Assembly: GCA_937907645.1 (NCBI GenBank)
Contig: CALCWV010000075.1
Location: 1 to 61,063 of the forward strand
From: an uncultured Clostridia bacterium
Lineage (GTDB): Bacteria > Bacillota > Clostridia > Christensenellales > UBA1242
Length of the DNA stretch: 61,063 bases
Direction: 5' to 3'
Below the pieces are notes generated by a model, which worked only from the letters and a program-made list of their open reading frames with translations, was not told the DNA's origin and did not search any database. Within the stretch, counting starts at the first letter, position 1. Each line of letters begins with the position of its first letter. Position numbers and translations under genes: made by a program. Positions 8,201-49,769 of this stretch are shown one piece after another.

Positions 8201-8905
8201 AAATTCAAGCAATGCTTCGTCTTGTGATTTTTGAGGTTCTCTTTCAAGAGCCATTCTAATATATTTGTTATCTCCAAATAACTGAGCGATTTCTGTTTCT
8301 GTAAAACCAAAGCATTTTAAGAAAATTCCAATTGAGATCTTGTATTGTCTATCGAATACAATCTTAACAGCTTCGTTAGCTCCCTGTTCAATTTCAATCC
8401 AGAATCCTCTTTCTGGGATCATTTGAGCTCTGAGAGTTGCGTTGTCATCTTTTTCTCTTGTTAAATATACGCTTGGTGCACGAACGATTTGATTCAATAC
8501 TACTCTTTCAATTCCGTTGCAAACAAATGACCCGTTGCTGGTCATTAAAGGCATGTCACCAAAAAATACTTCCTGTTCAGTTGTTTCACCTGTTTCGTCA
8601 ACTACGAAACGAGCTTTAACTTTCATTGGAACAGAATATGTAGCGTTTCTTCTCTTACATTCTTTCAATGTATATTTAGGAGCATCGCCCATTGTAAGTT
8701 CGCCAAAGTACAACTTAGACTTTCCGCTATAGTCTACAACAGGTGAAAATTCATCAAGAACTTCCCTAATGCCGTTTTCAATAAAGTTTTTATAAGAGTC
8801 CTTTTGGATTCCTAGAAGATCTGGCATTGGAGCAATATCTTCATGTTTAGCAAAATTGTATCTTTCTGCTCTTCCATATTTTTCTTTTTTAATACTAATT
8901 GCCAT
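5219..8905 (-). CDS. rpoB: DNA-directed RNA polymerase subunit beta (1228 aa, with acidic C-terminal extension)
   Basis: Conserved motifs GRHGNKGVVS and GGQRFGEMEVWALEAYGA are present. I moved the start to ATG 8905 (MAISIKKEKYGR...), which has AAGGAG 7 nt upstream (8913-8918). The ORF-track start at 8974 adds 23 residues, has no RBS and overlaps the leader hairpin. Confidence 0.96.
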   Translation of the reverse strand: MAISIKKEKYGRAERYNFAKHEDIAPMPDLLGIQKDSYKNFIENGIREVLDEFSPVVDYSGKSKLYFGELTMGDAPKYTLKECKRRNATYSVPMKVKARFVVDETGETTEQEVFFGDMPLMTSNGSFVCNGIERVVLNQIVRAPSVYLTREKDDNATLRAQMIPERGFWIEIEQGANEAVKIVFDRQYKISIGIFLKCFGFTETEIAQLFGDNKYIRMALEREPQKSQDEALLEFAKKTRPADVPSVESTRNWINMIFFTDAYYNLSRVGRYKFNKKLGLANRLPGLVAFENVIADDEVIVKAGEIFTEESARKVQDAGVNEVWVQVNGKKHLMRGNARVRLSNIIPCDERALGITEEVYYPELQQILKANKSKEKRLEAIKENAKNLVITTLTMDDILATISCYLDVLEGIAGVDKVDHLSNKKLCTVGDLFNKAFRTGVQKLTANIKETLQGKELSEVTPSQIINPKSVNKALRDFIAQSQLSQLMDQNNPLSGLSQKRRTSAVGPGGVKKERADVGVRDIHYTHYGRICAIETPEGQSIGLIDTLASYVKVNEYGFLETPYRKVNKETGVVSKDYKYYMADVEDTSFICQANEPLDEEGRFVNKQVICRHAESVVIVPASKVDYMDVSPRQFVSVATSLIPFVNSDETNRALMGANMQRQAVPVLRPESPIVGTGLEYKVAHDSGHVGLARHSGKVSYVSADEIRILCDDGSEDTYQLTKFERTNGETCNNQKPCVEKGEKVKAGDVIYDGYATQNGELALGKNVLVGYMNWEGYNYEDAIIINERLVKEDVYTTIILKEEEISCRTTKLGDEAITRDIPNLGEEALKNLDEDGIIRIGAEVRPGDILVGKVTPKGETELTPEERLLRAIFGDKAREVRDTSLRVKHGKGGVVVDVQVFSKKNKDELDPGVLQVVRVTIAQKRKLSVGDKMAGRHGNKGVVSIVVPEADMPFMANGRPLDIVLNPLGIPSRMNIGQVLEVHLGLVAGSLGWKVATPVFDGTNGDEIKELLIKNNFPADGKVQLYDGRTGEPFDNLTTIGMKYMLKLEHMVDSKIHARSIGPYSLITQQPLGGKSLFGGQRFGEMEVWALEAYGASHVLQEMLTVKSDDVVGRVKTFEAIVKGQPIAEPGIPESFKVLVKELQALALDIKIFTDNDQEISISELSMDEQDHVTPVVEAEHNFDDLSLDFDDLVKEESNDEVKEVIEEETKNIDNSDLFDDFGDFDE

Positions 8906-8946
8906 ATTTTTTCTCCTTAATTTATCGTGGAATAGTGTCTCTAGAC

Positions 8947-8992
8947 AAAAAAAAGGGCGGACGATACAAAACAAGGTATCGCCAAAACGCCC
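8947..8992 (-). terminator. Intrinsic-terminator-like attenuator hairpin in the rpoB leader
   Basis: On the minus strand: GGGCG / CGCCC outer stem (8955-8959 with 8988-8992), then an inner 8-position helix with 7 pairs and one A-C mismatch (8960-8967 with 8976-8983) and an 8-nt loop, followed by T8 (complement of 8947-8954). It sits between the predicted promoter (9049-9077) and the rpoB ATG (8905). Confidence 0.6.
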
Positions 8993-9048
8993 TAATTATT
9001 TAATTATATAGATTACACACTTCACCACAATACTTATTCAACATAAGC

Positions 9049-15100: not shown

Positions 15101-18100
15101 GAACATAAACTCTTCTCCCGATTCAACTTCTACATGCTTTCTTGTTGAATATGATTTGAAAGTAATTCCGTCGCTTACTAATGATTCACTTTTTGCTGTG
15201 TTATTAAATGCGATGAAACTTAATTTTTTATCATTGTCGCTTTCAAAGGTAAAATCTTTTGACTCTGTATATCTTACAACCATTGAAGCTTCGTCGTTCA
15301 AGCTCTCGCCGTCGTCAATTTCTTCGATATCGAGATAAGCTACTTTTTGAAGTTTATCAGCATACGCTAAAACTGCTCCAACCTTATAACCTGAAGCGAA
15401 AGTCCTAACTTTAAAGTTCTGTAAACTACACTCTTCTCCGTCGGTTGAGGATTTCAAAGCCCCAACAATTCCTCCCACATAAGAAGATGAAATGTTAGAA
15501 TGAACTCTTCCACTAACAATTGTTTTTGAAGTTCCGTCGGCTGTGCCAAGGATGTTATTTGTAGACATTCCGACAACAGCTCCTGCATAAACAGTTTTAT
15601 TATAATTTTCTATTGATGAAATTAGTGAAATGTTAGCATATACTAAGTTTCCAAGTAGTCCACTAAGCTGGATTTTCTCACTTTGATCCTCAATCACGCC
15701 TTCATTTTTTCCTGCAAGGCCACCGACATAAATAGCTGTGTTGATCTCTGAAGTTATAAGGAGTTGTCCTTCCATAACAACAGGAATATTTGTCTTCTTT
15801 GTTATATTTGCTTTGTTTAATCCGGCAATTGCTCCGATATATACATCCCCAGTTGTTTTTACTGTAACTCTTGATTGTTGCAAACAAACTGATATGTTAT
15901 TGAGCTCCGCATAGTTTTCACCCGCTAAAAGTCCAATGTATGTTTCGTTTGTGTCCCCCGTTTGGGCCTCGATTGAGCCCTCGAAGATGATATTTTCAAT
16001 TTTAGCTGTTTCACCTAGAATTGCGAATAAACCGTAATAAGCACGTTGTTCAATTACTGTCCCGCTCGTAATCTTAATTCCAGAAATTTTTGCATCTCCT
16101 TCACCTACGATTGAGCCTTCAAACTTACCACCATTTGCTGTGAATGGGAAACGCCCTGCATATGCGGACATATCAATAAGGCTTGTGATCCTATAGTGTG
16201 ACTTCATTGCGGAATCTGAATTTCCAATTGCAAGCACATCTTCTGGTGTTTCCAATTGATATGGATTTTTTTCTGTTCCGCTTTGATATGTAACTTTAAA
16301 ACTCTTAAATCTTGCGCCATCCTTGATTTTCCCATTTGAAACCCATTCTTTTGCGCAGATATATATTGTGCTCTCTGAACTATAATCGTCCTCGCTATCC
16401 AAAACGCCTGAATCAAGTCTAATAGTTACAAGCCATGTCCCGTCTTTAATTTTTTCCTTTACAGGAGTCAAAATTAATGCTCGTTTAGATCCGTCTTTAT
16501 TTTCAATTACAAAGTCGATATCCAAAACAGTGGCACTAAGTGGTGCAGCATTAACTACAAAGCTCTTTTCCATATTATTCTTTGTAAATGAGAACTCTGT
16601 TCCTGACAAAGAAACGTTTACTTGATCTACTGATGTAAATGATTTAATTTCGACGTTAACTGCAAATGCTTTTGTGAGTCCATATTGTCTAATCGTTGCA
16701 TATAGTGTGAAATTGGAATTTGACGCAGTTGGAAGTGCTGCTATTGTCAATGTTCTTGTGTTGAATTGTACAAGTCTATCTATTGTATAAGTTTCACCAT
16801 AAACCATTGTCGAAACTTTTCTGTTCCTGCTGTCATAGATATCTTTGTCTGCTGTCCAATAAACATAAGCATCATTGAATGTTGTTTCATAATATGTTTG
16901 ATTTTCATAAGAGTAGAAATTGAATGCATTTGAGCTTTTAACTTCATAATTGAAAGTCTTTGTTGAAAGGTCTGTGGAAACATCATCTCCTGTGAAAAGA
17001 GTAATTGAGTTTGCAAGTCTTCTGTCAGAGTAAACACTGAACTCCTCAGCAAGCTTGTAGGATTCAATTGTAAGTCTTACTTCCTTTGTTAAATCTTTTA
17101 AAGTAAAGTCTTCAACCTTATATCCGATAATACTGAAATTCACAATCGTTTTTCCATTTGAATTTGTTGTGATTTCATATACTCCTCTGTCGTCTGTTTC
17201 TTTGATAGTTGAAATTGTTCCGTTGGCTGAGAAGCTTATTTCTTTTATAACATCTATTCCATTGTTTGAAGATATCTTAATTCCTGCCTTTTCTCCAAAA
17301 GCATTTTCTTCATATGGATTTCTTATTATGATTGTTGCGTTCTCATCATCGCCTACTGCATTTTGCGTTTTTGTGAAGCTATAAACACTTGTGTTTGCCC
17401 CTTCTCTATTGATATATAAATTATCAAAAGTTTCAACGACTCTTATTGTTGCATTAATTGTTCTTCCGTTGTCTAAACGGATTTCGAATGTGTCGTTCCC
17501 AACTGCGACTGGAGAAATCTTTAATTGCAAGTAACTCTTTTCTCCATCGACCCTCTGTCCAACATATTGAACGCGGGCAACACCTGTGTTTTGCAGAGAT
17601 GTAACTGTTGCTCTTTCAAACACGTGGTCAGCATAAATTCCTTCAAACATAGCATCTCCACCTGTGGTTGAAACGTAAATTCCATAGGACTGATTTGTAG
17701 AGCTATAATTATATTCTTCTTGAGTGAAATTGAGCTCTGTAGCACCTGGCTCAATTGTATATCTGATGCTATATGTTATTTTATCGCTATCATCTCTATC
17801 AAAAGGACTGTTTAATATGAGTGCAATTGTTCCATCGTCTGCAGCTGCTCCCGACTTTCCTCTAACCTGAATAGGCTTTGTTAAATCTGTGATTGAGTTA
17901 CCAGATGATAAAATTGAATTTCCCTGTCTAACATCAATATTTTCTGGGAATGTCAAAGTGCAGTCTGTGTAAGATGAATCCTCAGCATATACTGAGATTT
18001 TTAAATTTTTCCATCCATAATCCCCAACATTGTAGTTGTAGAATTTATAGTTGTTTCCTGAGTCTGTTTCTTCAAGCTCGTTGACTTTGATTGTTTTTGG

Positions 18101-19303
18101 CTTTACATAAATTTCAACGTTGAAATCTTTAGTAGCTGATACAGATTCGTCATCAGTTCCAAAGAAGTTGTTATAATATAAATTAAATTTTACTTTTGCA
18201 GAACCCCTCTTTGCGATCTTGCTTCTAATCGTATAAAAATACTCTTTATAATCTTTTCCACTTTCATTCCTAACATCGTCTAATGCAATTGAAATTTTGG
18301 AAATGTCTTCCGTGCTAATTTCATAGTCAAAGCAGTATTGTGTATCTTCAGATTTTGGAACTTTCACAATAATTTGTGAATAAGTTCTATCCTCTGTTGA
18401 ATATGTAACAAGACTTGCGCCTGTGATTTGTCCTCCTGCGAGAGTTGTAAACTCAAAAGCGTCGTTATCTAAACCTTTAAAGGCATAGAATTTAACTGGC
18501 GAATAAAGTTTATTTGTTGTTCCATTGTCATATTCTGCAATAAAGTAGAATGACTGTGTGTCATAAACACTTTTTGAAAATGTTTTATATTCTCCGTTTT
18601 CCTTTATTTCGCTTTGTGTGAATATCAAAGAGCCTTTGTCTTCAGAAAGCCTGCAGTTTGTAAACTCTAGACATTCAAGTAGAGATTCTGCTCCGTCTTG
18701 CCCAATGAGTTTTGCTCCGTCAGCGTTATATCCCTGATCACTTAAGATACTTGATTCATTTACTGTCCCATTATTTACAAAATAGAATACCATATCTCGT
18801 TCTGTGCTGTTATTTGAGAAATTGAACATAGCAGCGCTTGGAACAAGATCTGTGTTCGGCGAAACAAATACATGTTCATCTTTTAGTGTTATTGAAGAGC
18901 TATACTCTCTAACATTTATTTTTATTTGGGCTGCCTTATTTCCGCCCTCTTTCGTTTTCGCAATAAGAGTTGCCGTTCCGCCGCTCACGCCTTCAACAAC
19001 GACCTCGGTCACACCGCTTCCCTTATATTCTGCTTGAAATTTGATTTTTGCTGTTTCTGATTCTCCAGATGAATATCCAGAATCATCAGTTGATGAGAGG
19101 AAAACCTCGCCGTCGTTTATGTAGTCTTCAACTTTGAAGCTTACTGTAACCTCCTCACCCACCTTGATATTTACTTCTTCATTTGTGCTTGGGACTATTG
19201 AAATATTGTTTGTAGTTTCTCCGCAAGATGTGACAAACACTGCCGCGGTACCTAGTAACACGGACATTGCGCTCATTAAAAGAATCTTGTTTATTTTCTT
19301 CAT
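9158..19303 (-). CDS. Giant surface lipoprotein (3381 aa) with Ig-like domains and three GLUG-repeat beta-helix modules
   Basis: Uninterrupted 10.1-kb ORF with RBS AAAGGGGAAG upstream. Signal peptide MKKINKILLMSAMSVLLGTAAVFVTSC carries the lipobox VTSC. An N-terminal Big_2-like Ig domain ends ...GTATLIAKTKEGGNKAAQIKINV. Three modules each open with NPY/NPI...(Y)xLxNDIdl...F.G.fdGnG and are followed by repeats such as YIGLLAGEN, YIGAIAGLN, YVGGLAGKNEGVI and YVGGIVGAL. Module positions are nt about 16270-15350, 12552-11300 and 11296-9900. Confidence 0.9.
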   Translation of the reverse strand: MKKINKILLMSAMSVLLGTAAVFVTSCGETTNNISIVPSTNEEVNIKVGEEVTVSFKVEDYINDGEVFLSSTDDSGYSSGESETAKIKFQAEYKGSGVTEVVVEGVSGGTATLIAKTKEGGNKAAQIKINVREYSSSITLKDEHVFVSPNTDLVPSAAMFNFSNNSTERDMVFYFVNNGTVNESSILSDQGYNADGAKLIGQDGAESLLECLEFTNCRLSEDKGSLIFTQSEIKENGEYKTFSKSVYDTQSFYFIAEYDNGTTNKLYSPVKFYAFKGLDNDAFEFTTLAGGQITGASLVTYSTEDRTYSQIIVKVPKSEDTQYCFDYEISTEDISKISIALDDVRNESGKDYKEYFYTIRSKIAKRGSAKVKFNLYYNNFFGTDDESVSATKDFNVEIYVKPKTIKVNELEETDSGNNYKFYNYNVGDYGWKNLKISVYAEDSSYTDCTLTFPENIDVRQGNSILSSGNSITDLTKPIQVRGKSGAAADDGTIALILNSPFDRDDSDKITYSIRYTIEPGATELNFTQEEYNYSSTNQSYGIYVSTTGGDAMFEGIYADHVFERATVTSLQNTGVARVQYVGQRVDGEKSYLQLKISPVAVGNDTFEIRLDNGRTINATIRVVETFDNLYINREGANTSVYSFTKTQNAVGDDENATIIIRNPYEENAFGEKAGIKISSNNGIDVIKEISFSANGTISTIKETDDRGVYEITTNSNGKTIVNFSIIGYKVEDFTLKDLTKEVRLTIESYKLAEEFSVYSDRRLANSITLFTGDDVSTDLSTKTFNYEVKSSNAFNFYSYENQTYYETTFNDAYVYWTADKDIYDSRNRKVSTMVYGETYTIDRLVQFNTRTLTIAALPTASNSNFTLYATIRQYGLTKAFAVNVEIKSFTSVDQVNVSLSGTEFSFTKNNMEKSFVVNAAPLSATVLDIDFVIENKDGSKRALILTPVKEKIKDGTWLVTIRLDSGVLDSEDDYSSESTIYICAKEWVSNGKIKDGARFKSFKVTYQSGTEKNPYQLETPEDVLAIGNSDSAMKSHYRITSLIDMSAYAGRFPFTANGGKFEGSIVGEGDAKISGIKITSGTVIEQRAYYGLFAILGETAKIENIIFEGSIEAQTGDTNETYIGLLAGENYAELNNISVCLQQSRVTVKTTGDVYIGAIAGLNKANITKKTNIPVVMEGQLLITSEINTAIYVGGLAGKNEGVIEDQSEKIQLSGLLGNLVYANISLISSIENYNKTVYAGAVVGMSTNNILGTADGTSKTIVSGRVHSNISSSYVGGIVGALKSSTDGEECSLQNFKVRTFASGYKVGAVLAYADKLQKVAYLDIEEIDDGESLNDEASMVVRYTESKDFTFESDNDKKLSFIAFNNTAKSESLVSDGITFKSYSTRKHVEVESGEEFMFSGLLDDHYGSYLEFSPTLKLKYAQYWFDGNTTSVVEIKTGDMSVELKVGEGETAPKMFTAYYFKAEKYLDENGQYTSANLQNAQKILDAKFNTISVDSKLRPFKITSNDITIKSESSLVSVDNMNNLIIRGTGVAKLKIYNSLNARESQDIYLYIMNFYNHNVMENTSFFSYGDVRWGSVASANLVADNNLIINVSPSYRTKSTELNTTSNFDITKDGEIYVDNMTIQLAPNEEIKTSIVPANDTTFAQHAAYDISSNLITISKTGTVIKKDTSDKLTLSSSLLVKVDGVEYSYNYTNSCELTLKYYEGAKSVKSLYDTYIINSGSTQSDTITIESDDESENLLYTITGEDYIQENAEKLFTVTITPISNSLVKNVEIKINKSSDEYKNRYSKNIFGTYKIRFYAGSNSDVAYKEITLILDDQSLDGVIFENYADQNERIASQKIVPSQYGMISVTLAPADVDFKTFIIENADGNYAYDSTSGSFEILYQDGAAFKNVPGAIYTSKGISISKEKLVTVNSNFDGQFFIRYMFGYTRFLKDGSNIRLNVRLIGNNENEIYAESLTYKINTQYTIYVSIDDKTLEDQKYYIAKGLRYGLTVVNNGFEESSVQVTTSNPSLAQIEVENGKYYLKVISREIDYANEGTFQLIVSGSRTDVDGKVISASSSSNVKIMEYIFNTKDAYGNEFIPADIVKNYQDGIIPVAISGNNELSIDLEKYLEYDSSNGDVLNKIKEFMQNATSDGKWTVYFKNDENEVVDWNQKDSDNTKFTKIEIKNGRISNKYFDFRDLEYSVKIEHDPNVNKIYSFTYKAGYQRDEEDGTYSIIDYQEGKKQNLLSEFTFATYIMGAEDTPNPITNYDNLKSMGANAHYILINDITITPEDYRAINGIFASLDGNGKNIIFSGGTYNLADSELGIFSEVSQDSIIKNLKVVFGSDEQPVNIVSSSTDAVIFGGVASRNSGTITNANVSGNLTFVNSNTNASSYVAGIVGSNAGTITNSQVTASIRTNGASLAGLVGQNTKLIASSYFKDGKLENITEQNTNFNTAGLVNMNSENGVIMTSYCSGVVVNTRIYSDAADGSELISNVQVAGAVHTNRGVVRDSYSNIPISTKSSSSGFIYKNSGTVTNCFSTSILDSNKQTNYYFVAETSIEGQGTGTFKNCYYLKDDGINQSLHPLVVKGVNQLKIDEFGNRANFESYAYGDNYNNVWMWVQNIQYPFNDVTLAEGRLELVTANIIASSIRVEDGKEEENGKTTYKYRYEEDVPQPGTMLNPYLVTSADTFLNYMSLGRDGYFRIIKDIDLNDVDITSYKTDFYGIIEGNGMSLTSADITSGKAASSAGLIGSIKTSTSPSANRPQHAGIMNLTLVPEIVNFPNVPIVGSLVGTVENATIENVAVKSSLTDNAGQDTSTVIVSGKNIVGGVVGLVKNKGYVKNITTTVGAKSTFIPSESARASITTGIYNGSNISSVSYAGNAVGYAFATSDQIKIQDVQVYSTSAYAIADRAGFAFGGLSKSVDVKTVTVNVNENMLIKAYSFGGLVVGENAGNLSDIVVTGSGSQSNVFSVQTYIPKGVGGIVGFMIKGFLSDVYMGQSFEIENVSLTNTVDYVGGIIGYSSATETSLTTLERIVMDGDISSRNYLGGIVGYTNTNVEMSNIAVYKHDLKVEGMLAEVYVGGFVGRNAGSVKITNAYSLAKVYVNAFSYSVGISVNVGAIIGSTKGEGENAVTYRIELENIYTITTYEVTIENKSTTAATTQITSFDEENGIGLSGSKVYEGVGVKIDNENGDLFDRNSVTDKKTANVLNFIPTTYENVLNPANGSPTTLLMVRADPAESGVSLTLNQNELGWSVCNWYNKGKTTTQEQRIDPSEDLYYTFAKNVSSSVTLENDIKDIQKYSLVDGKFVGQTQKEEGKDKPVKGSLNAGTYEDVYYDEANKYYYIKSGDDYYRIEESKVSLNPWTTPYDNDNNINGLSTLVFEKTLRMA

Positions 19304-19474: not shown

Positions 19475-22183
19475 TTAGCCACCGTGAATAGTCTTAATAT
19501 AATCTAGAGCTGTAATTTGAACCATTGTTCTGCTTGAAGGGCCAGTAATGAAGAATGCTTGCCCTCTTCCCGCCGTAACAATAGCATTTTGTTCTTCTTC
19601 GTTAATTCCACCAGATTTTTTGTAAAGCTCAACCAAGTCGTTGATATCATTTGGAGCGAGGGCGAAAATCAAGGAATATTGACAAGCGTTAATAACCGCT
19701 GTCGACTGTTTCTTAATTTCGTCTGATCCAACGAAGTCGGCAAGGTTCTGAGTAATAACTACCTGCATACCTGCATACTTTCTGATACGTTTTGCCATCT
19801 GTGCCATGAATTCCAAGGCAATAGGATATTTCGAGTTGATGAAAATGTGTGCCTCATCGACTACTACGATAATCTTTCTTGTATTCTTGCCATCTGGGTG
19901 ATATTTAGCGTTAAAGTCTTTGTTGTTAATAATTTCGTTGTTCAAATATCTGAACACCAATAACATTTGTGCGTTTGTGAGCAATCCGTTATTGTTTGCA
20001 ATCAATGATTGGAAGTTGAAGCAAACCAAGTTTTCGTTTGTAACGATAGATGTCGGCCCGTTCCAAAGTTTACTGTTTCTTCCGCCCGTTGCGAACTTTT
20101 TGATGTATGTTTCAACAGTCATAAGATTCTTCAAAAGGAAGTCATCCTTTGCTGTCTTAATTCTCTCAAGAATCAAATTGTACAAATCGTCGAAGATAGG
20201 ATAGTCTTCTGGCTTCTTATCTCCAAGATATGTGTTTTCATCAATTCCCTTGAGCTTGTATGTATCAACGATAAGTGAGTTCAATACTTCGAAAGCATCA
20301 CTGCTGATTCCCTCCAAGATTGATCTGAAGAATTGTTCCAAGAACTGCAAATGTTGTGAGAATGAGTCATCGACTTTTCTTTCAACAGCTTTTTTAACTT
20401 TTTCCACGATCTCGAACTCATCAAGCTCTTCATCACTCTTCTTTTCTTCCTCTGTTTCGTCCAAAGATGTGATAACGTGGAAAGGATTCAAAATGCCTTG
20501 TTGTGATGAACCTACATCGATGTACTTTCCTCCAAGATTTTGTGTCATTGTAAAATATTCTTTTTCAGGGTCGCAGATGAAAATCTTACTATTGTCTGCT
20601 GCGAGGTTTGTAAGTAACGTTTTAACAGCAAAACTCTTTCCTGATCCAGACTTTCCGATAACCATCATGTTTGAGTTAACACGAACAGCGTCTCTTTGGA
20701 AGAAATCGACGAACACTGGATATTCGTTATCCCCGATATATATTCCGTTTTCATCCTGCAATGCACTTGAGATGAATGGGAACACAGCGGCGAGCGTTGA
20801 AGTTGGAATACCTCTTCTTGTGTTTGCGATATTATCTCTTCTTGAGATGTTTGCACTGATGAAAGCATCAACTTGTCTAGCGAACATTTCACTGAACTTG
20901 AATCCGCTTTGCTTAAGCATAGCTTTAACATCTCTTCGAGCTGCGTCTTCGCAAGTTACATATGTATTTACATCAAACAATTGTTGATTGTTGTTTTTTA
21001 ACTGAACGAGCAAATCTCTAAGTGTGTCAATGTGTGTTTGCAATTCGATCTGACTACTGCTTCTTCCTGAACGATAGAGCTTTGACTCCATATCCATGAT
21101 AGCTTTATCGATGCTTCTTTCAGAGTTTGACTTTGGAAGCAAGCTGAACTTCATAACCACTCTTGTTCTGTCGAGAAGGAAGATCTCTGATCCCCAAGCA
21201 TTTCCAACATTCAAAGGATAGTCAGTTATAAGAAAAGTTCTAAAAGCTTTGTCCCCATCCAAAATGTACTTGGCTGATTTAAATTGCAATTTCTTTGGCT
21301 TTGCCCATTCAACATATTTATTGATTGGAAGAGATTCAACTTCTCTCTCATCAAATTCTTTTCCATAGTTTGCCTTAAGGAAAACAGCGAGGTCTTGTCC
21401 ATAAAGTTTCTTCGCAGTCATTGGAGCAAGTGAACTTGCAAGCGCTGAGATCATTCCGTTTGTTGTTCCCTCAAGAGTTGATTTGTCTTTATCATATACA
21501 ATGAGATAGAAGTGATCTTGATAAACTTTTTCACGTCTGTTAAGGTTTTCCATGAAGGAAACTCTTTCTTCGAAAACAGGTGCTCTTGAATCAACTTCGG
21601 CGTCTGTTACTTGTCCTTCATATTGCATTTCCAAAAGAAGTTCATACTTTTTGTTTTCGTTGTAAATGTAATTATCTAAAAGCATAGCTCTGTTGAGTTT
21701 AATAATTGAACATGTTTGGTCAGGTGTCAATCTTCTAAGAGCGTTCGCGAAACTTTCAATAACGTTATCCTGTGTATATTCATTTAACAATCCAAAAAGC
21801 ACAGGTTTAATTTCTAAAACTTGAGCATAGTATCCGCCAAAGTCTATGTATGAGTTTGCATCAATCTTTGTAAAAGGAATCATTTCGTTGATGTCTGACT
21901 TCTTTGATTTCCCGTCTGAAACAGAAAACTTTTTCTTCTGTGCCAAGAATCTAAACAAGTGAGATATTGTCACATAGAATCTTTCATCATCAGCGACCTT
22001 GATAAATAGTGAGAGCCCAACAATGAGCCACACTAAAGCGATCCAAATATGATTTGCAAAGTTAGATGCAAAAAGAACAACTGCGACAGCTACAACTATG
22101 ACAGCAAGTATAAGGTCGAAAGCAGTTACTCCTTTAACAAACTCTAATTTTACTTTTGTTTTTCTGGGGATAATTCTTTGCAT
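19475..22183 (-). CDS. VirB4/TrsE/PrgJ-family type IV secretion ATPase with an N-terminal VirB3/PrgI-like two-TM domain
   Basis: 902 aa. The N-terminus has two hydrophobic helices (FDLILAVIVVAVAVVLFASNF; IWIALVWLIVGLSLFIKV). The Walker A motif is MMVIGKSGSGKSFAVKTLL and the Walker B motif is KIIVVVDEAHIF. The C-terminal part (VITQNLADF...INACQYSLIFALAPNDINDL...GRGQAFF) is typical of VirB4-like ATPases. The central part (YAQVLEIKPVLFGLLNEYTQDNVIESFANALRRL) resembles the VirB4 N-domain. Confidence 0.75.
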   Translation of the reverse strand: MQRIIPRKTKVKLEFVKGVTAFDLILAVIVVAVAVVLFASNFANHIWIALVWLIVGLSLFIKVADDERFYVTISHLFRFLAQKKKFSVSDGKSKKSDINEMIPFTKIDANSYIDFGGYYAQVLEIKPVLFGLLNEYTQDNVIESFANALRRLTPDQTCSIIKLNRAMLLDNYIYNENKKYELLLEMQYEGQVTDAEVDSRAPVFEERVSFMENLNRREKVYQDHFYLIVYDKDKSTLEGTTNGMISALASSLAPMTAKKLYGQDLAVFLKANYGKEFDEREVESLPINKYVEWAKPKKLQFKSAKYILDGDKAFRTFLITDYPLNVGNAWGSEIFLLDRTRVVMKFSLLPKSNSERSIDKAIMDMESKLYRSGRSSSQIELQTHIDTLRDLLVQLKNNNQQLFDVNTYVTCEDAARRDVKAMLKQSGFKFSEMFARQVDAFISANISRRDNIANTRRGIPTSTLAAVFPFISSALQDENGIYIGDNEYPVFVDFFQRDAVRVNSNMMVIGKSGSGKSFAVKTLLTNLAADNSKIFICDPEKEYFTMTQNLGGKYIDVGSSQQGILNPFHVITSLDETEEEKKSDEELDEFEIVEKVKKAVERKVDDSFSQHLQFLEQFFRSILEGISSDAFEVLNSLIVDTYKLKGIDENTYLGDKKPEDYPIFDDLYNLILERIKTAKDDFLLKNLMTVETYIKKFATGGRNSKLWNGPTSIVTNENLVCFNFQSLIANNNGLLTNAQMLLVFRYLNNEIINNKDFNAKYHPDGKNTRKIIVVVDEAHIFINSKYPIALEFMAQMAKRIRKYAGMQVVITQNLADFVGSDEIKKQSTAVINACQYSLIFALAPNDINDLVELYKKSGGINEEEQNAIVTAGRGQAFFITGPSSRTMVQITALDYIKTIHGG

Positions 22184-23377: not shown

Positions 23378-23390
23378 TTAGTATACATTA

Positions 23391-23432
23391 AAAAAGGATA
23401 AGATTTGATTTACTTCAATCTTATCTTTTTTT
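23391..23432. terminator. Bidirectional terminator between the convergent DUF1858 gene and hflX
   Basis: GATAAGATT (23397-23405) / AATCTTATC (23417-23425) with an 11-nt loop, an A5 run 5' and a T7 run 3'. Confidence 0.7.
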
Positions 23433-23443
23433 ATAAAATATTT

Positions 23444-24556
23444 TTATTCATTATACAACTTTTCTCTAATCAAATTTTTAAGCTCATCTAAGCCAATATT
23501 TTTCTTAGCAGAAACAAGCATTCCTCTTTCTCTTAAATTCCCTTCGTCCTTAAGCATATCACATTTATTGAAAATTAATATTCTTTCGCATTTGCTTCCA
23601 ATGTCATCAAGGACTTTGTTTGTTACTTCAATATTTTTTTCAAAGTAACTTGATCCGTCCTTCCCTACTTGTGTTGGGTCAACAACGTGCAAAATAAGGT
23701 CAGCATCTTTTGCTTCTTCCAAAGTTGAAGCGAACGCATCGACCAGCTCATGAGGAAGATCTGTAATAAATCCAACTGTATCAGTTATAACAACATTTTT
23801 CCCCTGTCCAAGATAGAGCTTTCTGCTCGTTGTGTCAAGGGTTGCAAAATACTTGTCTTCCGCATAAATGTTATCTTTCGTCAGTGCGTTAATAAGAGTG
23901 CTTTTGCCCGCGTTTGTGTATCCAACAATTGCAATTCTCTTTGCTCCTGACTTTTCTCTTTCTCTTCTGTTAATTCCTCTCTTATTTCTAACTTGCGCGA
24001 TTTCTTTTCTAAGAAGATCCATTTCTTTTTCAAGTTTTCGTCTATCTAATTCAAGTTTTGTTTCTCCAGGTCCTCTCATTCCCACGCCAGATCCGCCATA
24101 TCTTCCGCTTGATCCCTTGACCTCGGCAAGTCTTGGCATAAGATATCTATCTTGCGCATATTTAACTTGTAATCTCGCTTCAGAGGTTTGCGCTCTTAGT
24201 GCAAAAATATCAATAATAAGTCCTACTCTGTCAATTACTCTTACACCTAAAACATCCGAGATATTCCTTGTTTGAGAAGCTGTCAGCGGATAGTCCACAA
24301 CGACGAGAGTAATCTCTTCTTCGCATTCCTCGATATATGCCCTTATTTCCTCAAGCTTGCCCTTTCCAAGCACAGTTGCCTTGTTAAAATCCCTAATATT
24401 TTGCGCGAAAGAATTGACCACTTCTAAATCAGTGGACTCAGCCAGTTTAGTTATTTCGTCAAGCTTTCTTTCCCTGTCATCGTTTTTATTAATGCACACT
24501 GCAACAACGATGCACTTATTTTTTTCTTTTTGCGTTGTTTCGTATATTTTCTTCAT
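23444..24556 (-). CDS. hflX: GTPase HflX
   Basis: Has the HflX N-terminal domain plus a GTPase domain, with G1 motif VGYTNAGKSTL and DTVGF. I set the start to ATG 24556 (MKKIYETTQ...). The ORF-track GTG at 24574 lies inside the predicted promoter. Confidence 0.9.
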   Translation of the reverse strand: MKKIYETTQKEKNKCIVVAVCINKNDDRERKLDEITKLAESTDLEVVNSFAQNIRDFNKATVLGKGKLEEIRAYIEECEEEITLVVVDYPLTASQTRNISDVLGVRVIDRVGLIIDIFALRAQTSEARLQVKYAQDRYLMPRLAEVKGSSGRYGGSGVGMRGPGETKLELDRRKLEKEMDLLRKEIAQVRNKRGINRREREKSGAKRIAIVGYTNAGKSTLINALTKDNIYAEDKYFATLDTTSRKLYLGQGKNVVITDTVGFITDLPHELVDAFASTLEEAKDADLILHVVDPTQVGKDGSSYFEKNIEVTNKVLDDIGSKCERILIFNKCDMLKDEGNLRERGMLVSAKKNIGLDELKNLIREKLYNE

Positions 24557-24562
24557 GATTTT

Positions 24563-24590
24563 ATTATAGCACACTTTTTCATTTTTTCAA
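24563..24590 (-). promoter_or_regulatory. Extended -10 sigma-A promoter abutting the hflX start codon
   Basis: On the minus strand: TTGAAA (24590-24585), a 16-nt spacer, then TGC-TATAAT (24571-24563). Counting 7 nt from the -10 puts +1 on the A of ATG 24556, and there is no SD sequence. Confidence 0.5.
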
Positions 24591-24754
24591 ACACATAAAT
24601 AGATTTTAGGCAATGTGCTATTTTAATAAACTTTTTGTGGATGAATTTTTATTAATATATCTCCACAACACAAAAAGCATAATACTTAGTTTACTCTCTT
24701 TCAATGTAATATGACAGCAGAAATCAAGAGATTTTTCTTGGATTTTGGCATTTT

Positions 24755-25066
24755 AAGGCTCTCAATAGAGGTTCCTCATTGAGGTTCTTGAAAGGGCAAA
24801 AGGCTGAAAAATAATTGATTTGTGCGGTGACAAACTAGGCAAGCCCCATAAGGGCGCGCCAGTTTTTAAGCTCGAGGCTCACCCGAGGTGGGCGCATAGT
24901 GACCTATGTAACCGTTAAAAATTATCTCGAAGTAATCAATCTTAGACAAAAAAGCGAGCAGAACAAGGCTCGCCGGTCATTGCTGGCAGGAGTTTACAAC
25001 CCCGTAAATGACTGTCAGAAATGGACGGCAGTAAACGCAGTTCTGCGACGCTTTTTTTGTCTAAGA
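24755..25066 (+). ncRNA. Candidate structured non-coding RNA, unclassified (GC-rich ORF-free island)
   Basis: No ORF of 60 aa or more, and markedly higher G+C than the surroundings. A 126-nt rod hairpin spans 24940-25065. Its closing helix is CTTAGACAAAAAAGCG / CGCTTTTTTTGTCTAAG, and its inner helices include CTGGCAG/CTGTCAG and GTTTAC/GTAAAT with hexaloop AACCCC. Upstream helices are ATTGATT (24813-19)/AATCAAT (24933-39), GCGCC (24855-59)/GGCGC (24890-94), CTCG/CGAG and CTCAAT (24760-65)/ATTGAG (24777-82). Four G-U pairs and a tandem G-A in the rod exist only on the plus strand. The 3' side ends in T7 (25052-25058). I found no convincing plus-strand promoter. Confidence 0.5.
24947..24973 (-). 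terminator. Possible minus-strand terminator of the lipoprotein gene, embedded in the rod hairpin
   Basis: On the minus strand: GCGAGC (24973-24968), a 9-nt loop, GCTCGC (24958-24953), then T6 (24952-24947). This is an alternative to the long-range pairing of the plus-strand rod. Confidence 0.45.
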
Positions 25067-25717
25067 TTTAGTTAGGATGTTGCCATCCTCAATATTTATA
25101 ACACAATAATGCGATGTTCCATTCTCTGCATAAATGTAAAAGTACCAGAATAACCTGTTAAATTTATCGTTTGGATTGTCGATGATTCTTAGATAACATT
25201 CTGCGCTGAGTTTTCTCTTACTAACTAAATTTTCTAGTTCGTCTGAAAAAGCCTCTGTTCCAATTTCAAGCGCATCACTGCTTTTTATATTGAAGTTTTG
25301 TGACCTACATTCAAGATCAACAACGCTGCCTTTATATTTGATTGAAATTTTGTCGTCTTCACTAACTTTATATCCAAGGTCAACAACGTAGGATGAGCTG
25401 AGCAAATCTTGCTCTAAGATTATGGTAGCTTTTTTATCATTGACGGATATTTCCGCTTGAATACATTTTTGATTGTCTGAAACAAGCATAGTCACTACTG
25501 AAAAGTCTTTGAGCTCACCAGTTTTTCCGTTATACTCATAAGGCTCTTCTCGTTGGCCGGAACTTATATTTGCACTAAAGTCACCTGCGCCAGAAAAGTA
25601 AACTTCCACCATTTCAGATATACTTTGCTTCGCAAGGTCTTGTATATTTATTGAGCAGCCTGTTAGCACTACGCAAAATAAAAAAGATATAAGTAAAAGC
25701 ATTTTTTTGTTAAACAT
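25061..25717 (-). CDS. Hypothetical lipoprotein
   Basis: 218 aa. Signal peptide MFNKKMLLLISFLFCVVLTGC carries the lipobox LTGC. I recognised no domain. Confidence 0.7.
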   Translation of the reverse strand: MFNKKMLLLISFLFCVVLTGCSINIQDLAKQSISEMVEVYFSGAGDFSANISSGQREEPYEYNGKTGELKDFSVVTMLVSDNQKCIQAEISVNDKKATIILEQDLLSSSYVVDLGYKVSEDDKISIKYKGSVVDLECRSQNFNIKSSDALEIGTEAFSDELENLVSKRKLSAECYLRIIDNPNDKFNRLFWYFYIYAENGTSHYCVINIEDGNILTKS

Positions 25718-30269: not shown

Positions 30270-33200
30270 TTAAATATTATCGCCTCCAACTGATGCATTA
30301 ATTTTGCTTACATCGTTTACCTTTCTAAAATATGTAGCTTCAATTGTATATGTATGCACACTAAAGTCATTATACAAATAAATATTATAAAAATTAACGA
30401 TTCCATCTCTATCTAGTTGGTTACTACTATTATACAAAAATGCATTATACGCAACTCTTGAAGGCAGACAATAAAAGGTGTTTGCAGCTATTCTTCCATT
30501 TCTTCCAAAAATGTAAGTTTCATGACTTCTTCCACGTATATAAGTTCGATTATCGTTGATAAGAGCTGGATCCCAATACAGCTTTAATGATTTATCCGCA
30601 TATTCTTTAGTTTCATCATTTTGAGAATTATAATCAAATGTAGAAACTTTAACAGAAATTTCTTCAACGCCGATGACCTCTACTCCTTTATATTCATCCA
30701 CCCCAAATTTAAAATTGCTTCCACTGAGGTCTACTCCACCATGCCCATTATTTCCATTCCATCCGTTTCTTCCTGATTTTAGGGTTACTATAGCTCCAGA
30801 TGATGATTTTGCACTGACTTCACCTGGTGCTCCTTTTAATCCTCCTGCTTGTCCTTTACCGCCACATTTAGGTTGGTCTGAACTTGTATGATCCTTGCCA
30901 AGTTCTCCATCCATTCCATGACCACCATTCCCTTCAAGGCCGGCTTTTAAAACGCCTTTGTTTTCTAACTCGGCGTTACCTATACTTTGACCGTTTCTGC
31001 CATTGTTAGTCTCTCCAGATTCACCATCTTCTCCATCTTTGCCATCAAAACCAACAATTAATCCGTAGTTCACGCTAATTCCATCAAACTTGATCAGATT
31101 GTTAATTTGAGTCCCATCATAATCATCTTTGAATCGACTGTAATTTACGAAGCTTGATGCTCCAGACCCTGTATTGCCAAACAAGTAAACATCCCTTGTT
31201 ATATCGTTTAATGATGTTATTGAACCAAAAGTTTTTGCTCCTGAAATTTTAGTAGCGCCCATATTAATTAGGGATAAATCACTAGTACCATCATTAACCA
31301 CTGCTCCAGCGAAATTTAAATCGTTTATCTCGCCTTCACTTGTATCAATTCCGTTAATTAAGTAGTTTTCATTAGTTGCAAAATTTAGGAAATATTTATT
31401 CCCAATAATCTTACTCTTTATGATTGACTTAACATTATCATTAATATTAATATCTGATTTAAAAATTATTATTTCATAAGAATTAGAAGTATTCTGATAT
31501 GAAGCCTTTCCACTTATATTAGACATATAAGGAGATTCTCCTGTGTTTTCACTGAAATATTCATTATGTGTCTTATATTTAAAAGTTATCTCAACTTCTT
31601 GATCTTCATCGCTATTTGGAATTAATGATAATTTTTTCCCGTCTTCTGAAAATTCATAAGATGTTTCTGGTCGTGTCTGTACTTCCTTTATATAGTCACC
31701 ATATGGTACATCCACTTCACTTTCTACATATGAAATTGTAAAATCGCTTGATTTTGACAAATTGTCTACTTTTACTTCAATTGAATAATTATTTACAGAA
31801 TATTTTTCAAATGATACTTCAAATTTAATGGTAGAAAGTGTTAATTTATATTGTTTCATTCCATCTTGATTAACTTCTTCAATTAGATAGTAATAAGGGA
31901 TAGATTTAATTAAAACAGTATTTGCATTATTATTATCAAATTTTACATTAGAATTTGTGCCAACTTTGGCTAATTTTCCGTCAATATAAGTAAACTCGTA
32001 TTTAACTTCATCAATTTCAACAGCTAAAGGATCTTCTTTAGTACCCGCAGCCGCTTCCTTAGAAGAAATGCTAATTTTTTCTGTTTTGAGTTTACTATTA
32101 ACATTTTCGTTGACTGAACCACAAACATACTTATCATTACCAATCGTAATAACAACTCTGTTAGATGTATACTTATCTCCATCTTCTTCAATTTCATATG
32201 CTTCAGTGTTAGAATTAATTATTTCTCCTGTTGATTGATTAATTAAAATATACTTATCGCCATTTATAAAGTACGCATAATCTTGATTTGAAATAGTAAT
32301 TTTGCCATTGCTACCTTTAATTTCATTATTGTCATTATCTATTAAAACTAAATTACTTTGCGATACATTTGCTGTAAAGCTTGTTCTCTCATTAATCATT
32401 TCAGGATCAACTGAAAGATAGTATGTATAGTTAGCTGTTTCAGTATATAATTTATACGACCTTGTTGTGAATTTTAATTGCACGTTAGTGACAGGATTTG
32501 AGTATGAGAAGCTATAGTCTAAAGTATATGATGTATTATTTGAGTTGTCAAAATATGTCTTCTTGTTTCCATAATTGTCAGAAATTTCATAGACTGCAAT
32601 TGAATCTTTTGCTTTTGTGAACGTGTATGAATTTTCAATTTTTGTCAATGTCCTATTAATTGAAGATTCATAATGCCATGTCTGATAGGAAAAACCACCA
32701 ATTGATATATTTTCATCATAAATACATTGATCCACTTGAGTTCCTGTATAAGTCGCACCTTTTTCGGTTGTTATTGTTGTTTTAAATGTTGGATATTTAA
32801 AATTTCCTTCTCCATCTCCGAGTTTACCATAATTGTCATCTCTTTGGAATTTAACATAAACTGGGATACTCGATCTGAGCCAAGCCCCTACAAGAGTATC
32901 ATAACTAATTTTAAATACAACTTGCCCATCACAGTCCTTTAATATGAAAGTGCCTTCACCTGTTGATACAAATTTTTTATTTATATAACACGTTATATCC
33001 ATTTCATATTTTGTGTCACCATTTTCAATAATTCCTGTTATTGTTAAACTTCCGTCAAGATTTTTTTGATAGGTCTTTTGAGTCCAGAGCTCTGAATTAG
33101 GAAGGTCTATTGATTCAATTTTATTATTCTCATCTCCATATGTTCCCGTCTCATATAAATACTTATTTATCAAACTATCATTGAAATTTCCATTTGAGTA

Positions 33201-36200
33201 AGCTATATATTTATTATTCACGTTAGACAATGTTTTATACTGTCCACCCGTAGTAAATGATGTCTTTTCAAACTCAGATTTTGTATTTTCTATTTCAGCA
33301 TAATCGCTCTTTGACGAAAGAGTATAATTATCTTCAAATGATAAAGATTTTTCAATACCTGATCCATAGTAAGAAATATTATAGGTATCGCTAATCTCTT
33401 TCGCTGTTACGTTTTTACCTAATTCCCCTTCTTTTATTGCTCCAATAACATGTAGTATCCCATCTTCATATTTGCTATCAAAAGATTTCTTTACATCTGG
33501 GTTTAGTTTTTCGGTAAAAGTAACTAAGTAACTACCATTCTCATATAATTGCGATCTTTGCAGTTCACTCAGATATAACTTAATATTTTCTCCATCTACA
33601 ACAATATTTGTTGCACTTAAATTAATAGTTACGCTTTCATCAGCTTTTACAAATGTTAGATTATAGATTATATTAACATTAACGTCTTGTGAGTCTTCTT
33701 TTTTATTTAAAAGGCCTATTCTTAGGTAGTATTTATTTTCCTTTTTTACAATTTTGTTATCAATAATTTCATAATCTTGCGAATTCTTATTTTCAATAGA
33801 GATCGTTGGCGTATAATTTGCCTCCTCTATAGCCTTCTTAATATCGTTTTGATAACTTTCATCAATTTCAATATCTACTACTTTATATTGGTTATTAATA
33901 GTTTTTTCCAGACCTTTTGAATCCTTAATAATTGCAGTAAATTTTCCTCCAACACTAGTTTCCTTTAAATCCTCTGTTTTATCTACATTTAACTTTAATA
34001 ACTTCTCACATTCTTCTTTAGTGAGTGTCCCCTCGTTTGTTATCTTACTCTTTTCATAATAAGATTCTGTACCTTTTAAGTAACGAGTTTCTGAAATAAT
34101 CGTCTGATTAGATACCATTATATTGGCATCTTTTGAAACCCCTGTGTTGAATACGTGAGTTGTATCTACTTGCCCATAGGTAATCGTTCTATTACCAGTT
34201 ACACAGAATGAAGAAGGATAACCTAGTTCATCATATCCAGTAATATTCACATCAGATGCATTAAACGAAATCGACATACCTTTATAATCTTTTAATTTAG
34301 TCCCGGATCCCCAATCATAGAAATAAGTAGTTCCTTTTTCTAATATTTCGTAAATTCCATTTCTTAATACCAATCCATCGCTTTTGTATGATGAACATCT
34401 GTTATAGTTATTTGCAATTATTCCTCCTGCATAAACGTTTATTTTAGCATCGATGATCTTTATCGTAACATCTCCAGACAATTTATTTTTATCAACCTGA
34501 CCTCGAACTTTCTCAATTTGCTCCTCTTCTATATTCTTTCCCAAAGCTTCAATTACGCCAGCATTGTAGAGGTTAGAGAATGTTCCGTCGTCTGCTTTTC
34601 CGACAATTCCTCCAGCATAGGATTCCTTTGTGCTTTTTTTGTTACCAGCTTTAATCATTGCGGTGTTGTAACAATTCTTTACACTTCCACTCGCAACATA
34701 TCCTACAATTCCGCCGGCAACATATCCGCCGTCTTTATCAGTATCTATAACATATCCCGCGATAACCGAGTTAGTGTTCCCGCAGTATGAAATATTTATA
34801 CCAGCTGCCTTTCCAATAATACCACCAGTGTAACAGTCTCTAATACCATCATAATAGGTACTATCATTTTGAATCGGTGCATAGTTTATACAGTTAGATA
34901 GAGTTAAAGCTCCGTTTGCATTCCCAATGATTCCACCAACTCTAGATTTAAGTGCTTCAGATTTAACCTTTACATAATTTTTACAGTATTCAATAGAGGA
35001 ATTACCTCTTGAGTAACCAACTATTCCTCCCACATCGTGAGCACCACCATTTTGGTTCGAAGGTATGTTGATAAATCCACTAGCAACAACATTGTAAATT
35101 TTGCTGTCGCTAGATGTTAGTTTCTCTGCAAGTGATCCAATGTTGACCCCATCAGAGCTTGTATTGATGTTTACATTCATCAAACGTAAGTTTCGAACTG
35201 AACCTGAAAGAGTTGTAAACAAAGGTTTATTAGTTGTTGAGTTAGCATCATCACTAAGCTCGTAATCAATTGTGTATTCTTGGCCATCCAGTGTGCCTGA
35301 GAAACTGCCAAGTTCAATACCTTGCAAATTAGCTTTCTCAAGCTCTAAGTCGTTTGTGAGAACATATCTTCCGTTAGTCAATTTAGATATCTGTGCTAGT
35401 TTTCCTGCATTTGGAACGATCATGAAGTCATTGTCACCATAAGTAAATTCATCCCAAGATTTTGGAGTGTAAGTATACTTTGTTTGAGCATATCTGTCAG
35501 CGCCTGCTGTCTCAGTCTTCGTTGCGTATGATGATTGCTTCAAGAATCCAAAGTTTCGAGTTTGATATCCAAAATTATAGTCTTCTGATGCAGTCCAACC
35601 AGTGCCAGGTGTTGAGCTTTGAACCCCTGCAAAATCGACGGTAACAGCACTTGTTGTTTTTTCTGTTACTCCGGTCTCTGTTTTACTATACTCCGTTGCA
35701 TTAACGTCGTACCAGCAGTTAGTGTATGCCGCCGTGCCGAAGTTGAATGCAGCTGGTTCTGTTTGACCATTTACATAATCATGCCAGTCAATCTGTGAAA
35801 TTGTATAACAATTTGAAACGTTTACATTTCCATTGCTTGATCCATCAATGAATCCATATGTTGTGGCATTGATATATGTTGATACTCTGCCAGTTGAATA
35901 TGAATTTCTAATTGTGATTGGCTCGCCATTATGGTCTGAAAGTGTTGCAAAACCAGCTACTTCTCCGCCTCCTGCTGAGGTGTTTGTTTTATCGTTTCCG
36001 CTCTCATCTTTTCCAACTCCTGCACGATAAAGGACGTTCGCTCCTGCCACTGACTCGTCGATAAGTCCGCTCTTGAGATTTCCTACGATTGGGGCAAGGT
36101 TGATTGCACCGGTTCCTCCAACAGAGATGTTTCCATAAACCGCAACGGCATATAGCGTTCCACCTGTCATCACATTCAAAAGTCCACCGTTTACGCCACT

Positions 36201-49688: not shown

Positions 49689-49769
49689 TTTCGCTCCTAT
49701 TTTATTATTTTTATTTTGAAAAATATTAGTCATAACTCTCACCTTTTTTCAACCTTTTTTTACAGAATA

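Follow-up and report, generated by a model that had tools for sequence, protein, structure and literature searches.

What kind of element is the G+C-rich, almost gene-free island between a lipoprotein gene and the GTPase gene hflX in the genome of an uncultured Clostridia bacterium? The stretch of DNA analysed, here called the window, comprises 61,063 nt (61 kb) of contig CALCWV010000075.1, and the island at positions 24755-25066 makes up the right-hand 310 nt of the spacer between the two genes. The initial annotation considered it a candidate for a single novel structured RNA of about 310 nt, consisting of a 126-nt rod-like hairpin (24940-25066, the rod) and a multi-helix domain (designated module M3 here). 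A single RNA of this kind is not supported, as the block is absent in relatives that keep the flanking genes adjacent, occurs in three mosaic arrangements among close strains, and is represented by the rod alone at a second locus (contig L071). With a probability of about 0.6, the rod is a low-copy palindromic terminator element, resembling miniature inverted-repeat transposable elements (MITEs) and the SPRITE repeat, inside a lineage-specific mosaic of non-coding palindromic modules. This reading is built on the presence or absence of the rod at two unrelated loci, mosaic variation among strains, the same ends found with different cores, and the retention of the hairpin.

The spacer is 504 nt long when measured to the likely hflX ATG (24556), and the 486 nt reported before is correct to the upstream GTG. 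In the closest GTDB genome (L001, HflX 88% identical), the lipoprotein stop and the hflX ATG are 32 nt apart, and three metagenomic relatives (L066, L067, and L068, lipoproteins 68-72% identical) have spacers of 31 nt. These short spacers mark the ~470 extra nt as an insertion specific to a narrow clade, which rewrote the last sense codon and the stop of the lipoprotein gene. The protein ends with ...K N in the empty-site relatives and with ...K S (TCT TAG) in the window. No homologue of the island was found by blastn and nhmmer at 57 hflX loci from GTDB genomes, so the island is not conserved together with hflX.

Three mosaic alleles were found among strains with HflX 94-98% identical, and all start with ...ACT AAA TCT TAG. 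The 504-nt window allele is the only one with a full rod of its type (type A) at the hflX locus. The commonest allele is an identical 577-nt spacer from seven independent samples (L072-75, L077, L079, L080), with HflX 98% identical. L058/L059 are partial contigs of this type, and L060 and L082 are partial contigs of a form close to the third allele, which is 434 nt long. Most of the window rod is gone from the 577-nt allele, where its 3' terminator part remains (CCGGCGAGCCTTGTTCTGCTCG + T8 + GTCTAAGA) and is preceded by a different rod, M1, whose end TCTTAGA followed by A7 is like that of type A. M1 has a perfect 21-bp inverted repeat, AACTAAATCTTAGAAAAAAAC / GTTTTTTTCTAAGATTTAGTT, at positions 8423-8443 and 8536-8556 of L072, and its left arm includes the last 13 nt of the lipoprotein open reading frame (ORF). 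As this arm runs into the ORF, one arm of the repeat must have been copied from the flank, and the repeat suggests a palindrome that grew by template switching more than a pair of transposon ends. The inner stem of M1 is an 18-bp stem formed by an inverted copy of an M3 segment (24870-24913). The 434-nt allele (L061/L062) contains half of the rod only (window 24992-25057, 94% identical) and a second full, diverged rod, designated type B, which is 73% identical to the window rod and is also present in L082. M3 is absent from this arrangement and partly duplicated in inverted orientation in the 577-nt one. A block whose parts come and go, turn up inverted, or are duplicated among strains this similar in HflX is not a conserved RNA made of rod and multi-helix domain; its behaviour is that of interspersed palindromic repeats.

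The second locus was found in a metagenome scan with the motif common to rod types A and B, which gave two chance matches in GC-rich DNA and one real locus, on contig L071. The rod is 93.6% identical there to the window rod over 125 nt. It begins where a CBS-domain gene has its stop codon; ~270 nt of other non-coding DNA come next, and then a 324-aa gene, Tex, and a McsB-like kinase. The rod is the sole sequence common to this spacer and that of the window. In contig L084 (CBS protein 87% identical, same sample as the empty-site L067), the site is empty, with 61 nt to the next gene. At the CBS locus, GAT TTT TAG stands in place of the final two sense codons and the stop (GAG CAA TAA), and at the hflX locus TCT TAG stands in place of AAT TGA. 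The rod is oriented the same way to the upstream gene at the two loci, and the outermost paired bases differ complementarily between them (TCTTAGAC/GTCTAAGA at one, TTTTAGAC/GTCTAAAA at the other). A covariance model (R1) built from the type A and B rods recovers all rods with 147-75 bits, M1 at 75 bits, which places them in a single family; the core of M1 differs, and its ends are as in the type A and B rods.

The G+C content of the island is 46% (0.46), compared with a window mean of 35.6% (0.356) and 0.15-0.35 in other intergenic regions, and just 0.3% of the 300-nt windows match this level. The statement that the island is much more G+C-rich than the rest of the window is somewhat overstated even so, as coding stretches elsewhere reach 0.43-0.46 in some 150-nt windows. 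Fold z-scores were calculated for each strand separately. The rod has a folding energy of -65.4 kcal/mol on the plus strand (z -11.5) and -55.3 kcal/mol on the minus strand (z -6.85), and it is the most stable 130-nt fold of the whole window. The z-scores of the whole 316 nt are -6.7 and -4.85, respectively. With DNA parameters, the rod has z-scores of -9.6 on the plus and -6.7 on the minus strand. Being non-coding and 126 nt long with 17/18-nt arms, the rod has the size and shape of a MITE (<~400 bp, non-coding, terminal inverted repeats). Its parts are as follows.

24940-25066: rod element type A, a 126-nt long imperfect palindromic hairpin whose inverted-repeat ends carry an A-run and a T-run.
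24940-24956: left inverted-repeat arm TCTTAGACAAAAAAGCG, paired with the right arm, with one bulged T.
25049-25066: right inverted-repeat arm CGCTTTTTTTGTCTAAGA, which holds the last sense codon and the stop of the lipoprotein gene.
24958 and 25040: helix GCAGAAC / GTTCTGC.
24973 and 25020: helix CCGGTCATT / AATGGACGG.
24983 and 25012: helix CTGGCAG / CTGTCAG.
24992 and 25004: helix GTTTAC / GTAAAT, capped by AACCCC.
24947-24974, minus strand (gene-sense): compact intrinsic terminator GGCGAGC CTTGTTCT GCTCGCT then T6, predicted by a terminator scan, -15.1 kcal/mol.

All of the helices are present where the initial annotation placed them, with GCAGGAAC a misprint for GCAGAAC. The T7 said to follow the rod is present as well, but it lies within the closing helix, paired with the A-run. 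The ends of the rod read TCTTAGAC and the A-run on one side and the T-run and GTCTAAGA on the other. The layout of a Rho-independent terminator is present on both strands, with GGCGAGC...GCTCGCT + T6 on the minus strand and the rod stem GCG...CGC + T7 on the plus strand. The compact minus-strand terminator, already noticed by eye, was recovered by the scan and ranks in strength among the top two on the minus strand of the window.

Types A and B are informative on the structure. Aligned to each other, they have 94.9% of cells paired, and 7 of the 34 pairs are changed on both sides. None of 500 shuffles reached their covariation score, and slid controls gave a far poorer structure. Judged from this alignment, the rod is an evolutionarily maintained hairpin; the comparison with relatives thus upheld the hairpin of the initial annotation, but no relative has the whole architecture. 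The plus strand folds better in five of five rods (-65/-55, -57/-41, -47/-23, -46/-23, and -69/-57 kcal/mol), and four G-U pairs are conserved in all four type A and B sequences. The argument for the plus strand that had been drawn from G-U pairs is suggestive at this level, but it did not reach significance in neutral tests. A strand-neutral fold-back alignment has 23 G-T and 15 A-C apposed pairs, which is not significant, and among simulated decaying palindromes an asymmetry of 10 kcal/mol occurs in 30-40% and of 20 kcal/mol in 3-6%. The type B asymmetry of 24 kcal/mol is matched by 3-6% of the simulated palindromes, and asymmetries of 10-18 kcal/mol are common throughout the window. The preference for the plus strand, in a comparison of three independent rod types, is suggestive and driven mainly by type B. 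The inverted repeat of L072 reaches the coding sequence, so an arm can arise as a copy of the other arm or of the flank, and this has probably happened via template switching at quasipalindromes. Arm copying can mimic compensatory evolution without selection on RNA.

The rest of the spacer and its flanking genes contain the following features.

25061-25717, minus strand: lipoprotein gene with lipobox LTGC, the upstream neighbour, its 3' end overlapped by the rod.
25061-25063, minus strand: TAG stop of the lipoprotein gene, supplied by the element; empty-site relatives end with AAT TGA.
23444-24556, minus strand: hflX (GTPase), the downstream neighbour, with Pfam domains GTP-bdg_N/M and MMR_HSR1.
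24563-24590, minus strand: predicted hflX promoter TTGAAA, 16 nt, TGCTATAAT, with 11/12 matches and a TG motif.
24813-24940: module M3, bracketed by ATTGATT (24814-24820) and AATCAAT (24934-24940).
24870-24913: 44-nt M3 segment, 100% identical to one arm of the L072 rod M1.
24738-24800: further hairpins within the inserted block, including CTCAAT...ATTGAG at 24761-24783, common to L072 and partly to L082.
24557-24737: AT-rich rest of the insertion, with the hflX promoter at its end.
24788-24815, plus strand: promoter-like site TTGAAA, 16 nt, AATAAT, with 10/12 consensus matches.

The pairing of ATTGATT with AATCAAT around the inner helices of M3 was confirmed. The region 24810-24942 folds marginally, with z -2.6 on the plus and -2.9 on the minus strand and equal energy on both. 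M3 is present in the window and L072 types and missing from the L061/L060 type. Between the window and L072 it has 67 identical pairs, no compensatory pair, and one broken pair, and the two copies are too alike to inform on structure. In the AT-rich part (24557-24737), the window/L072 type differs from the L061 type except for the last ~70 nt. Pieces of the ancestral 31-nt spacer (ATTGATT, AATTATT, and G.TATAAT) seem by eye to be kept at the module borders 24810-24816, 24934-24940, and 24563-24570, and these border remnants suggest that the rod, M3, and a left block entered a single short spacer as three adjacent insertions. The hairpins at 24706-24835, to the left of the GC island, fold with -41.1 kcal/mol on the plus and -25.1 kcal/mol on the minus strand, a further strand asymmetry of the inserted block, and are common to the L072 allele. 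Many independent assemblies break in the spacer, as contigs L058, L059, L060, and L063-L065 end and contigs L076, L078, and L081-L083 start there, 55-331 nt past the lipoprotein stop or 169-393 nt ahead of hflX. Repeated sequence or strain heterogeneity in the spacer could account for these breaks.

The -10 box of the hflX promoter ends 6 nt ahead of the ATG, and the promoter lies downstream of the whole island. The empty-site relatives have an equivalent promoter, TTGATT-17-TGATATAAT, which overlaps the TGA stop of the lipoprotein gene. The same arrangement, a -10 box (TGnTATAAT) ending 6 nt from the ATG and no Shine-Dalgarno sequence, was seen in the window (24554-24590), in L001 (71-108), and in L066-L068, and this arrangement suggests that the hflX mRNA may be leaderless.

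Under the favoured reading, a cluster of modules would have been inserted into a spacer, originally of 31 nt, that separated the lipoprotein stop from the hflX promoter. The rod would land on the last codons of the ORF, supply the TAG, and put a long GC-rich stem with A-tract and T-tract directly behind the gene. Such a layout would be that of a bidirectional Rho-independent terminator and a hairpin of the 3' untranslated region (UTR), with the A-tract giving the bidirectionality. The element may spread, or may have spread, as a MITE-like or SPRITE-like unit, and its arms may have been homogenised and extended by intrastrand template switching. It would end and stabilise the lipoprotein transcript and uncouple hflX from the upstream genes, with hflX presumably expressed from its own promoter at 24563-24590. 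M3 would then be a neighbouring module of the same mosaic and not the partner domain of one RNA.

Several results weigh against this reading. No direct target-site duplication was seen when filled and empty sites were compared at the two loci; the flanks extend the inverted repeat, and the boundaries are uncertain by ~2 nt. In the window, no gene was found for a transposase, an integrase, a REP-associated tyrosine transposase (RAYT), or a reverse transcriptase. With neither a target-site duplication nor such an enzyme gene, mobility is deduced from the distribution of the rod alone. The covariance-model search revealed no further rod in the 61-kb window, nor any in 348 kb of related loci; only two loci are documented, the copy number is low, and L071 and the window may come from different genomes. 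Transcription and termination are predicted here from sequence alone. The consensus fold on the strand antisense to the upstream genes has -28.1 kcal/mol and 34 pairs, compared with -11.6 kcal/mol and 19 pairs on the other strand, and this is not what a pure sense-strand terminator predicts.

An unlikely alternative is an independent small RNA (sRNA) gene on the plus strand, in antisense orientation to the genes on either side. Its transcript would begin near 24822 (~7 nt past AATAAT), run through M3, and end at the rod with its T7, and each rod would then serve as an RNA-level module in a variable family of sRNAs. Besides the consensus fold, the better folding of this strand in all rods, the four conserved G-U pairs, and the rarity of the type B asymmetry in simulations speak for it. 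The promoter-like site lies within the only segment common to all three alleles (54 nt, 24791-24844, shared with L061 at 90.7% identity and with L072), and L061 has a promoter-like TTTCCA-16-TATTAT on the plus strand just upstream of rod B. The predicted transcripts, however, are ~245, 320, and 125 nt long with different cores among strains with HflX 94-98% identical, the -35 box is lost in L061 (TAAAAA) and the -10 box weakened in L072 (AAGAAT), and the rod at L071 has no promoter-like site ahead of it on the plus strand. The count of G-T and A-C pairs is not significant, asymmetries of 10 kcal/mol are common in the simulations and across the window, and M3 has no strand preference. Promoter-like matches are also frequent in this AT-rich DNA, with 6-7 found and 2.4-2.5 expected. 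It is improbable that the rods are local palindromes without mobility, that is, ordinary terminators grown by quasipalindrome template switching and copied by recombination or gene conversion. The perfect 21-bp repeat of L072 running 13 nt into the lipoprotein ORF, the M1 core as an inverted duplicate of M3, and the complementary outermost pairs at the two loci fit such an origin, but a 93.6% identical sequence of 125 nt at two unrelated loci, with empty sites in a relative, needs transfer between loci. This explanation overlaps the reading as a MITE/SPRITE-like element and does not exclude it.

A hairpin for recombination or transposition of single-stranded DNA, of the REPIN/RAYT, IS200/IS605-derived, or attC-like kind, is likewise improbable. 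Its tyrosine or HUH enzyme (HUH enzymes nick single-stranded DNA) would be encoded elsewhere in the genome, and the strand-specific folding would be that of DNA. An imperfect hairpin that has bulged bases, keeps its ends, and can exchange its core would suit it, as would the location directly behind ORFs, with one orientation at the two loci, and the strong fold with DNA parameters, and the lack of a direct target-site duplication is expected for such mechanisms. Its ends TCTTAGAC...GTCTAAGA, on the other hand, match neither the attC core GTTRRRY nor the REP heads GTAG/CGTC, the flanks are conserved, syntenic chromosomal genes and not cassettes, and the window yielded no integrase, RAYT, or TnpA. 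REP/REPIN and integron attC identities were rejected on these ends and neighbours, with one copy in 61 kb, far under the density of REP families, and no Y1 transposase found in the window. Furthermore, if the genes are co-directional with replication, as their orientation and the GC skew would indicate, the strand exposed on the lagging template would be the gene-sense one, which folds less well. In Listeria, attenuation is known to control hflXr (PMC6310831), and by analogy with this antibiotic-responsive attenuator the island might be a cis-regulatory leader of hflX on the gene-sense strand. It lies upstream of hflX and has terminator hairpins with possible alternative pairings (rod and compact hairpin). 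We nevertheless find this scarcely credible, as the island is absent from close relatives with hflX 31 nt behind the lipoprotein gene, and the strongest promoter (11/12 + TG) is downstream of it, which puts the island outside the hflX 5' UTR from that promoter. No conserved leader ORF was found, and the rod at L071 follows an unrelated gene and is not beside hflX; the distribution largely refutes a leader. An hflX/hflXr leader attenuator was rejected on the same promoter, ORF, and relatives. It is quite unlikely that the rods form an undescribed hairpin family of uncultured gut Clostridia that inserts specifically at ORF 3' ends, replaces the stop, and is maintained on the antisense strand, either as mobile bidirectional terminators with stop-codon targeting or as modular antisense sRNAs with swapped cores.

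The closest analogue of the rod is SPRITE of Streptococcus pneumoniae, an interspersed repeat of ~105 nt with AAAA/TTTT terminal repeats and a long duplex with a U-rich tract (PMC3049150). It is enriched near the 3' ends of coding sequences, has ~30 copies per genome, and neither a target duplication nor a parent insertion sequence (IS) was established for it (PMC3049150). Like SPRITE, the rod is a small non-coding repeat of a low-GC Firmicute, and the two are alike in size, A/T-run ends, long duplex with U-rich tract, position at the 3' end of coding sequences, low copy number, and the lack of an established target-site duplication or of matching IS ends; the comparison is by analogy and not by sequence homology. 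SPRITE is AT-rich (28% GC), whereas the rod has 46% and is GC-rich for its genome. Also unlike SPRITE, the rod is a near-complete palindrome of 126 nt with several internal loops, replaces the stop codon, and has been seen at two loci so far. Repeats that extend the 3' ends of ORFs have been described, and the hairpin MITEs Correia/nemis, ERIC/IRU, RUP, and bcr1 of the Bacillus cereus group have been reviewed (Delihas 2011, PMC3184786). They share with the rod a length of 100-170 nt, terminal inverted repeats, long stem-loops if transcribed, presence or absence among close strains, and fusion to ORF 3' ends, and bcr1 has structure-keeping compensatory changes as well. They differ from it in their direct target duplications (TA, or 5 bp in bcr1) and in copy numbers of tens to hundreds per genome, and for several a parent IS can be identified.

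REP/BIME mosaics and REPINs of proteobacteria resemble the rod cluster in their GC-rich palindromes, alternating orientation between operon genes, and strain variability, and REP/BIME are thought to act in termination and mRNA stabilisation. REP units, unlike the rod, are 20-40 nt long, have GTAG/CGTC heads, are very abundant, and are linked to RAYT (PMC3733652). Integron attC sites are likewise imperfect hairpins (57-141 nt) directly after an ORF, with conserved ends, a variable core, and strand-specific folding; they differ in core sites GTTRRRY/RYYYAAC, gene cassettes, and an integrase, while the neighbours of the rod are conserved housekeeping genes. Bidirectional intrinsic terminators have the same A-tract, GC-rich stem, and T-tract and can terminate from either side. 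The rod stem is ~ten times longer than that of ordinary ones and is repeated elsewhere, and since the rod lies between co-directional genes there is no obvious need for termination on the plus strand. The rod is filed as a small interspersed palindromic, terminator-like repeat, which is a known kind of element, outside any named family. No family name was assigned, because the defining features (target duplication, copy number, head motifs, and partner transposase) were not observed.

Searches for known families agreed with the initial annotation that the region is non-coding and without a match to a known RNA family. Rfam 15 covariance models, run on both strands, gave no match at gathering score in the whole window. 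At E<=10, the region 24560-25120 had three chance matches to eukaryotic miRNA or snoRNA families (E 0.4-2), none of them over the rod. ARAGORN predicted no tRNA or tmRNA, Tandem Repeats Finder reported nothing, and a repeat search within the window revealed no second copy of the rod. Phage and plasmid collections gave no match in blastn, and pattern scans of viral contigs gave none. A search with the terminal inverted repeat motif revealed no other occurrence, and the T-run + GTCTA tail motif had chance matches only in other loci. Presumably by coincidence, GTCTAAGA resembles what we take to be the start of the Cas12a repeat. The island is nearly, though not entirely, free of ORFs as had been stated, since a 58-aa ORF with a GTG start is located at 24899-25075 on the plus strand. 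It is not conserved, and phmmer against 1.84 billion representatives matched BNR-like repeat proteins and one tandem-repeat ORF, all by chance. A small ORF or type I toxin was rejected, as no ORF is conserved between alleles or loci, and retron, diversity-generating retroelement, and omega-RNA identities were rejected, as no reverse transcriptase, TnpB, or IscB was found in the window.

The window represents a core region of the chromosome with rpoB, rpoC, pth, htrA, and hflX. An exact look-up of its lipoprotein (218 aa) and of the 376-aa GTG-start translation of HflX returned no record, and close homologues of both were found. Two giant ORFs are coded on the minus strand at 9158-19303 (3381 aa) and 30270-49742 (6490 aa), both with internal degenerate repeats. 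The 3381-aa ORF has no Pfam match and adjoins a 902-aa gene for a TraG/FtsK-like P-loop ATPase (19475-22183). The other strong predicted intrinsic terminator of the minus strand is located between this ORF and rpoB (8941-8995, -17.7 kcal/mol). It has a frame in common with the compact terminator of the rod, GGCGA..CCTTGTTYTG..TCG..C, then T6-8, then GTCTA(A/G); with a score of 25, their local alignment comes out roughly first of the non-self scores in 3210 windows, yet it is weak. The two may be related modules. Strains of the L061 type have a 176-aa acetyltransferase gene between hflX and a DUF1858 gene (L061/L062 5207-5737), which is missing from the window (compare 23378-23443) and from L072-type strains.

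If the favoured reading is true, the locus would be of wider interest only should stop-codon targeting at many loci or expression of the plus strand appear, and would otherwise be unsurprising to specialists. It would serve as a warning case for RNA-discovery screens in AT-rich genomes, where high G+C content, an extreme fold z-score, some covariation, and the lack of an Rfam match can stem from a young palindromic repeat. For the organism, it would mean that a terminator-like element was inserted between formerly adjacent and probably co-transcribed genes, with the stop rewritten and hflX left on its own promoter, and that the spacer then diversifies fast among strains of this lineage of gut Clostridia.

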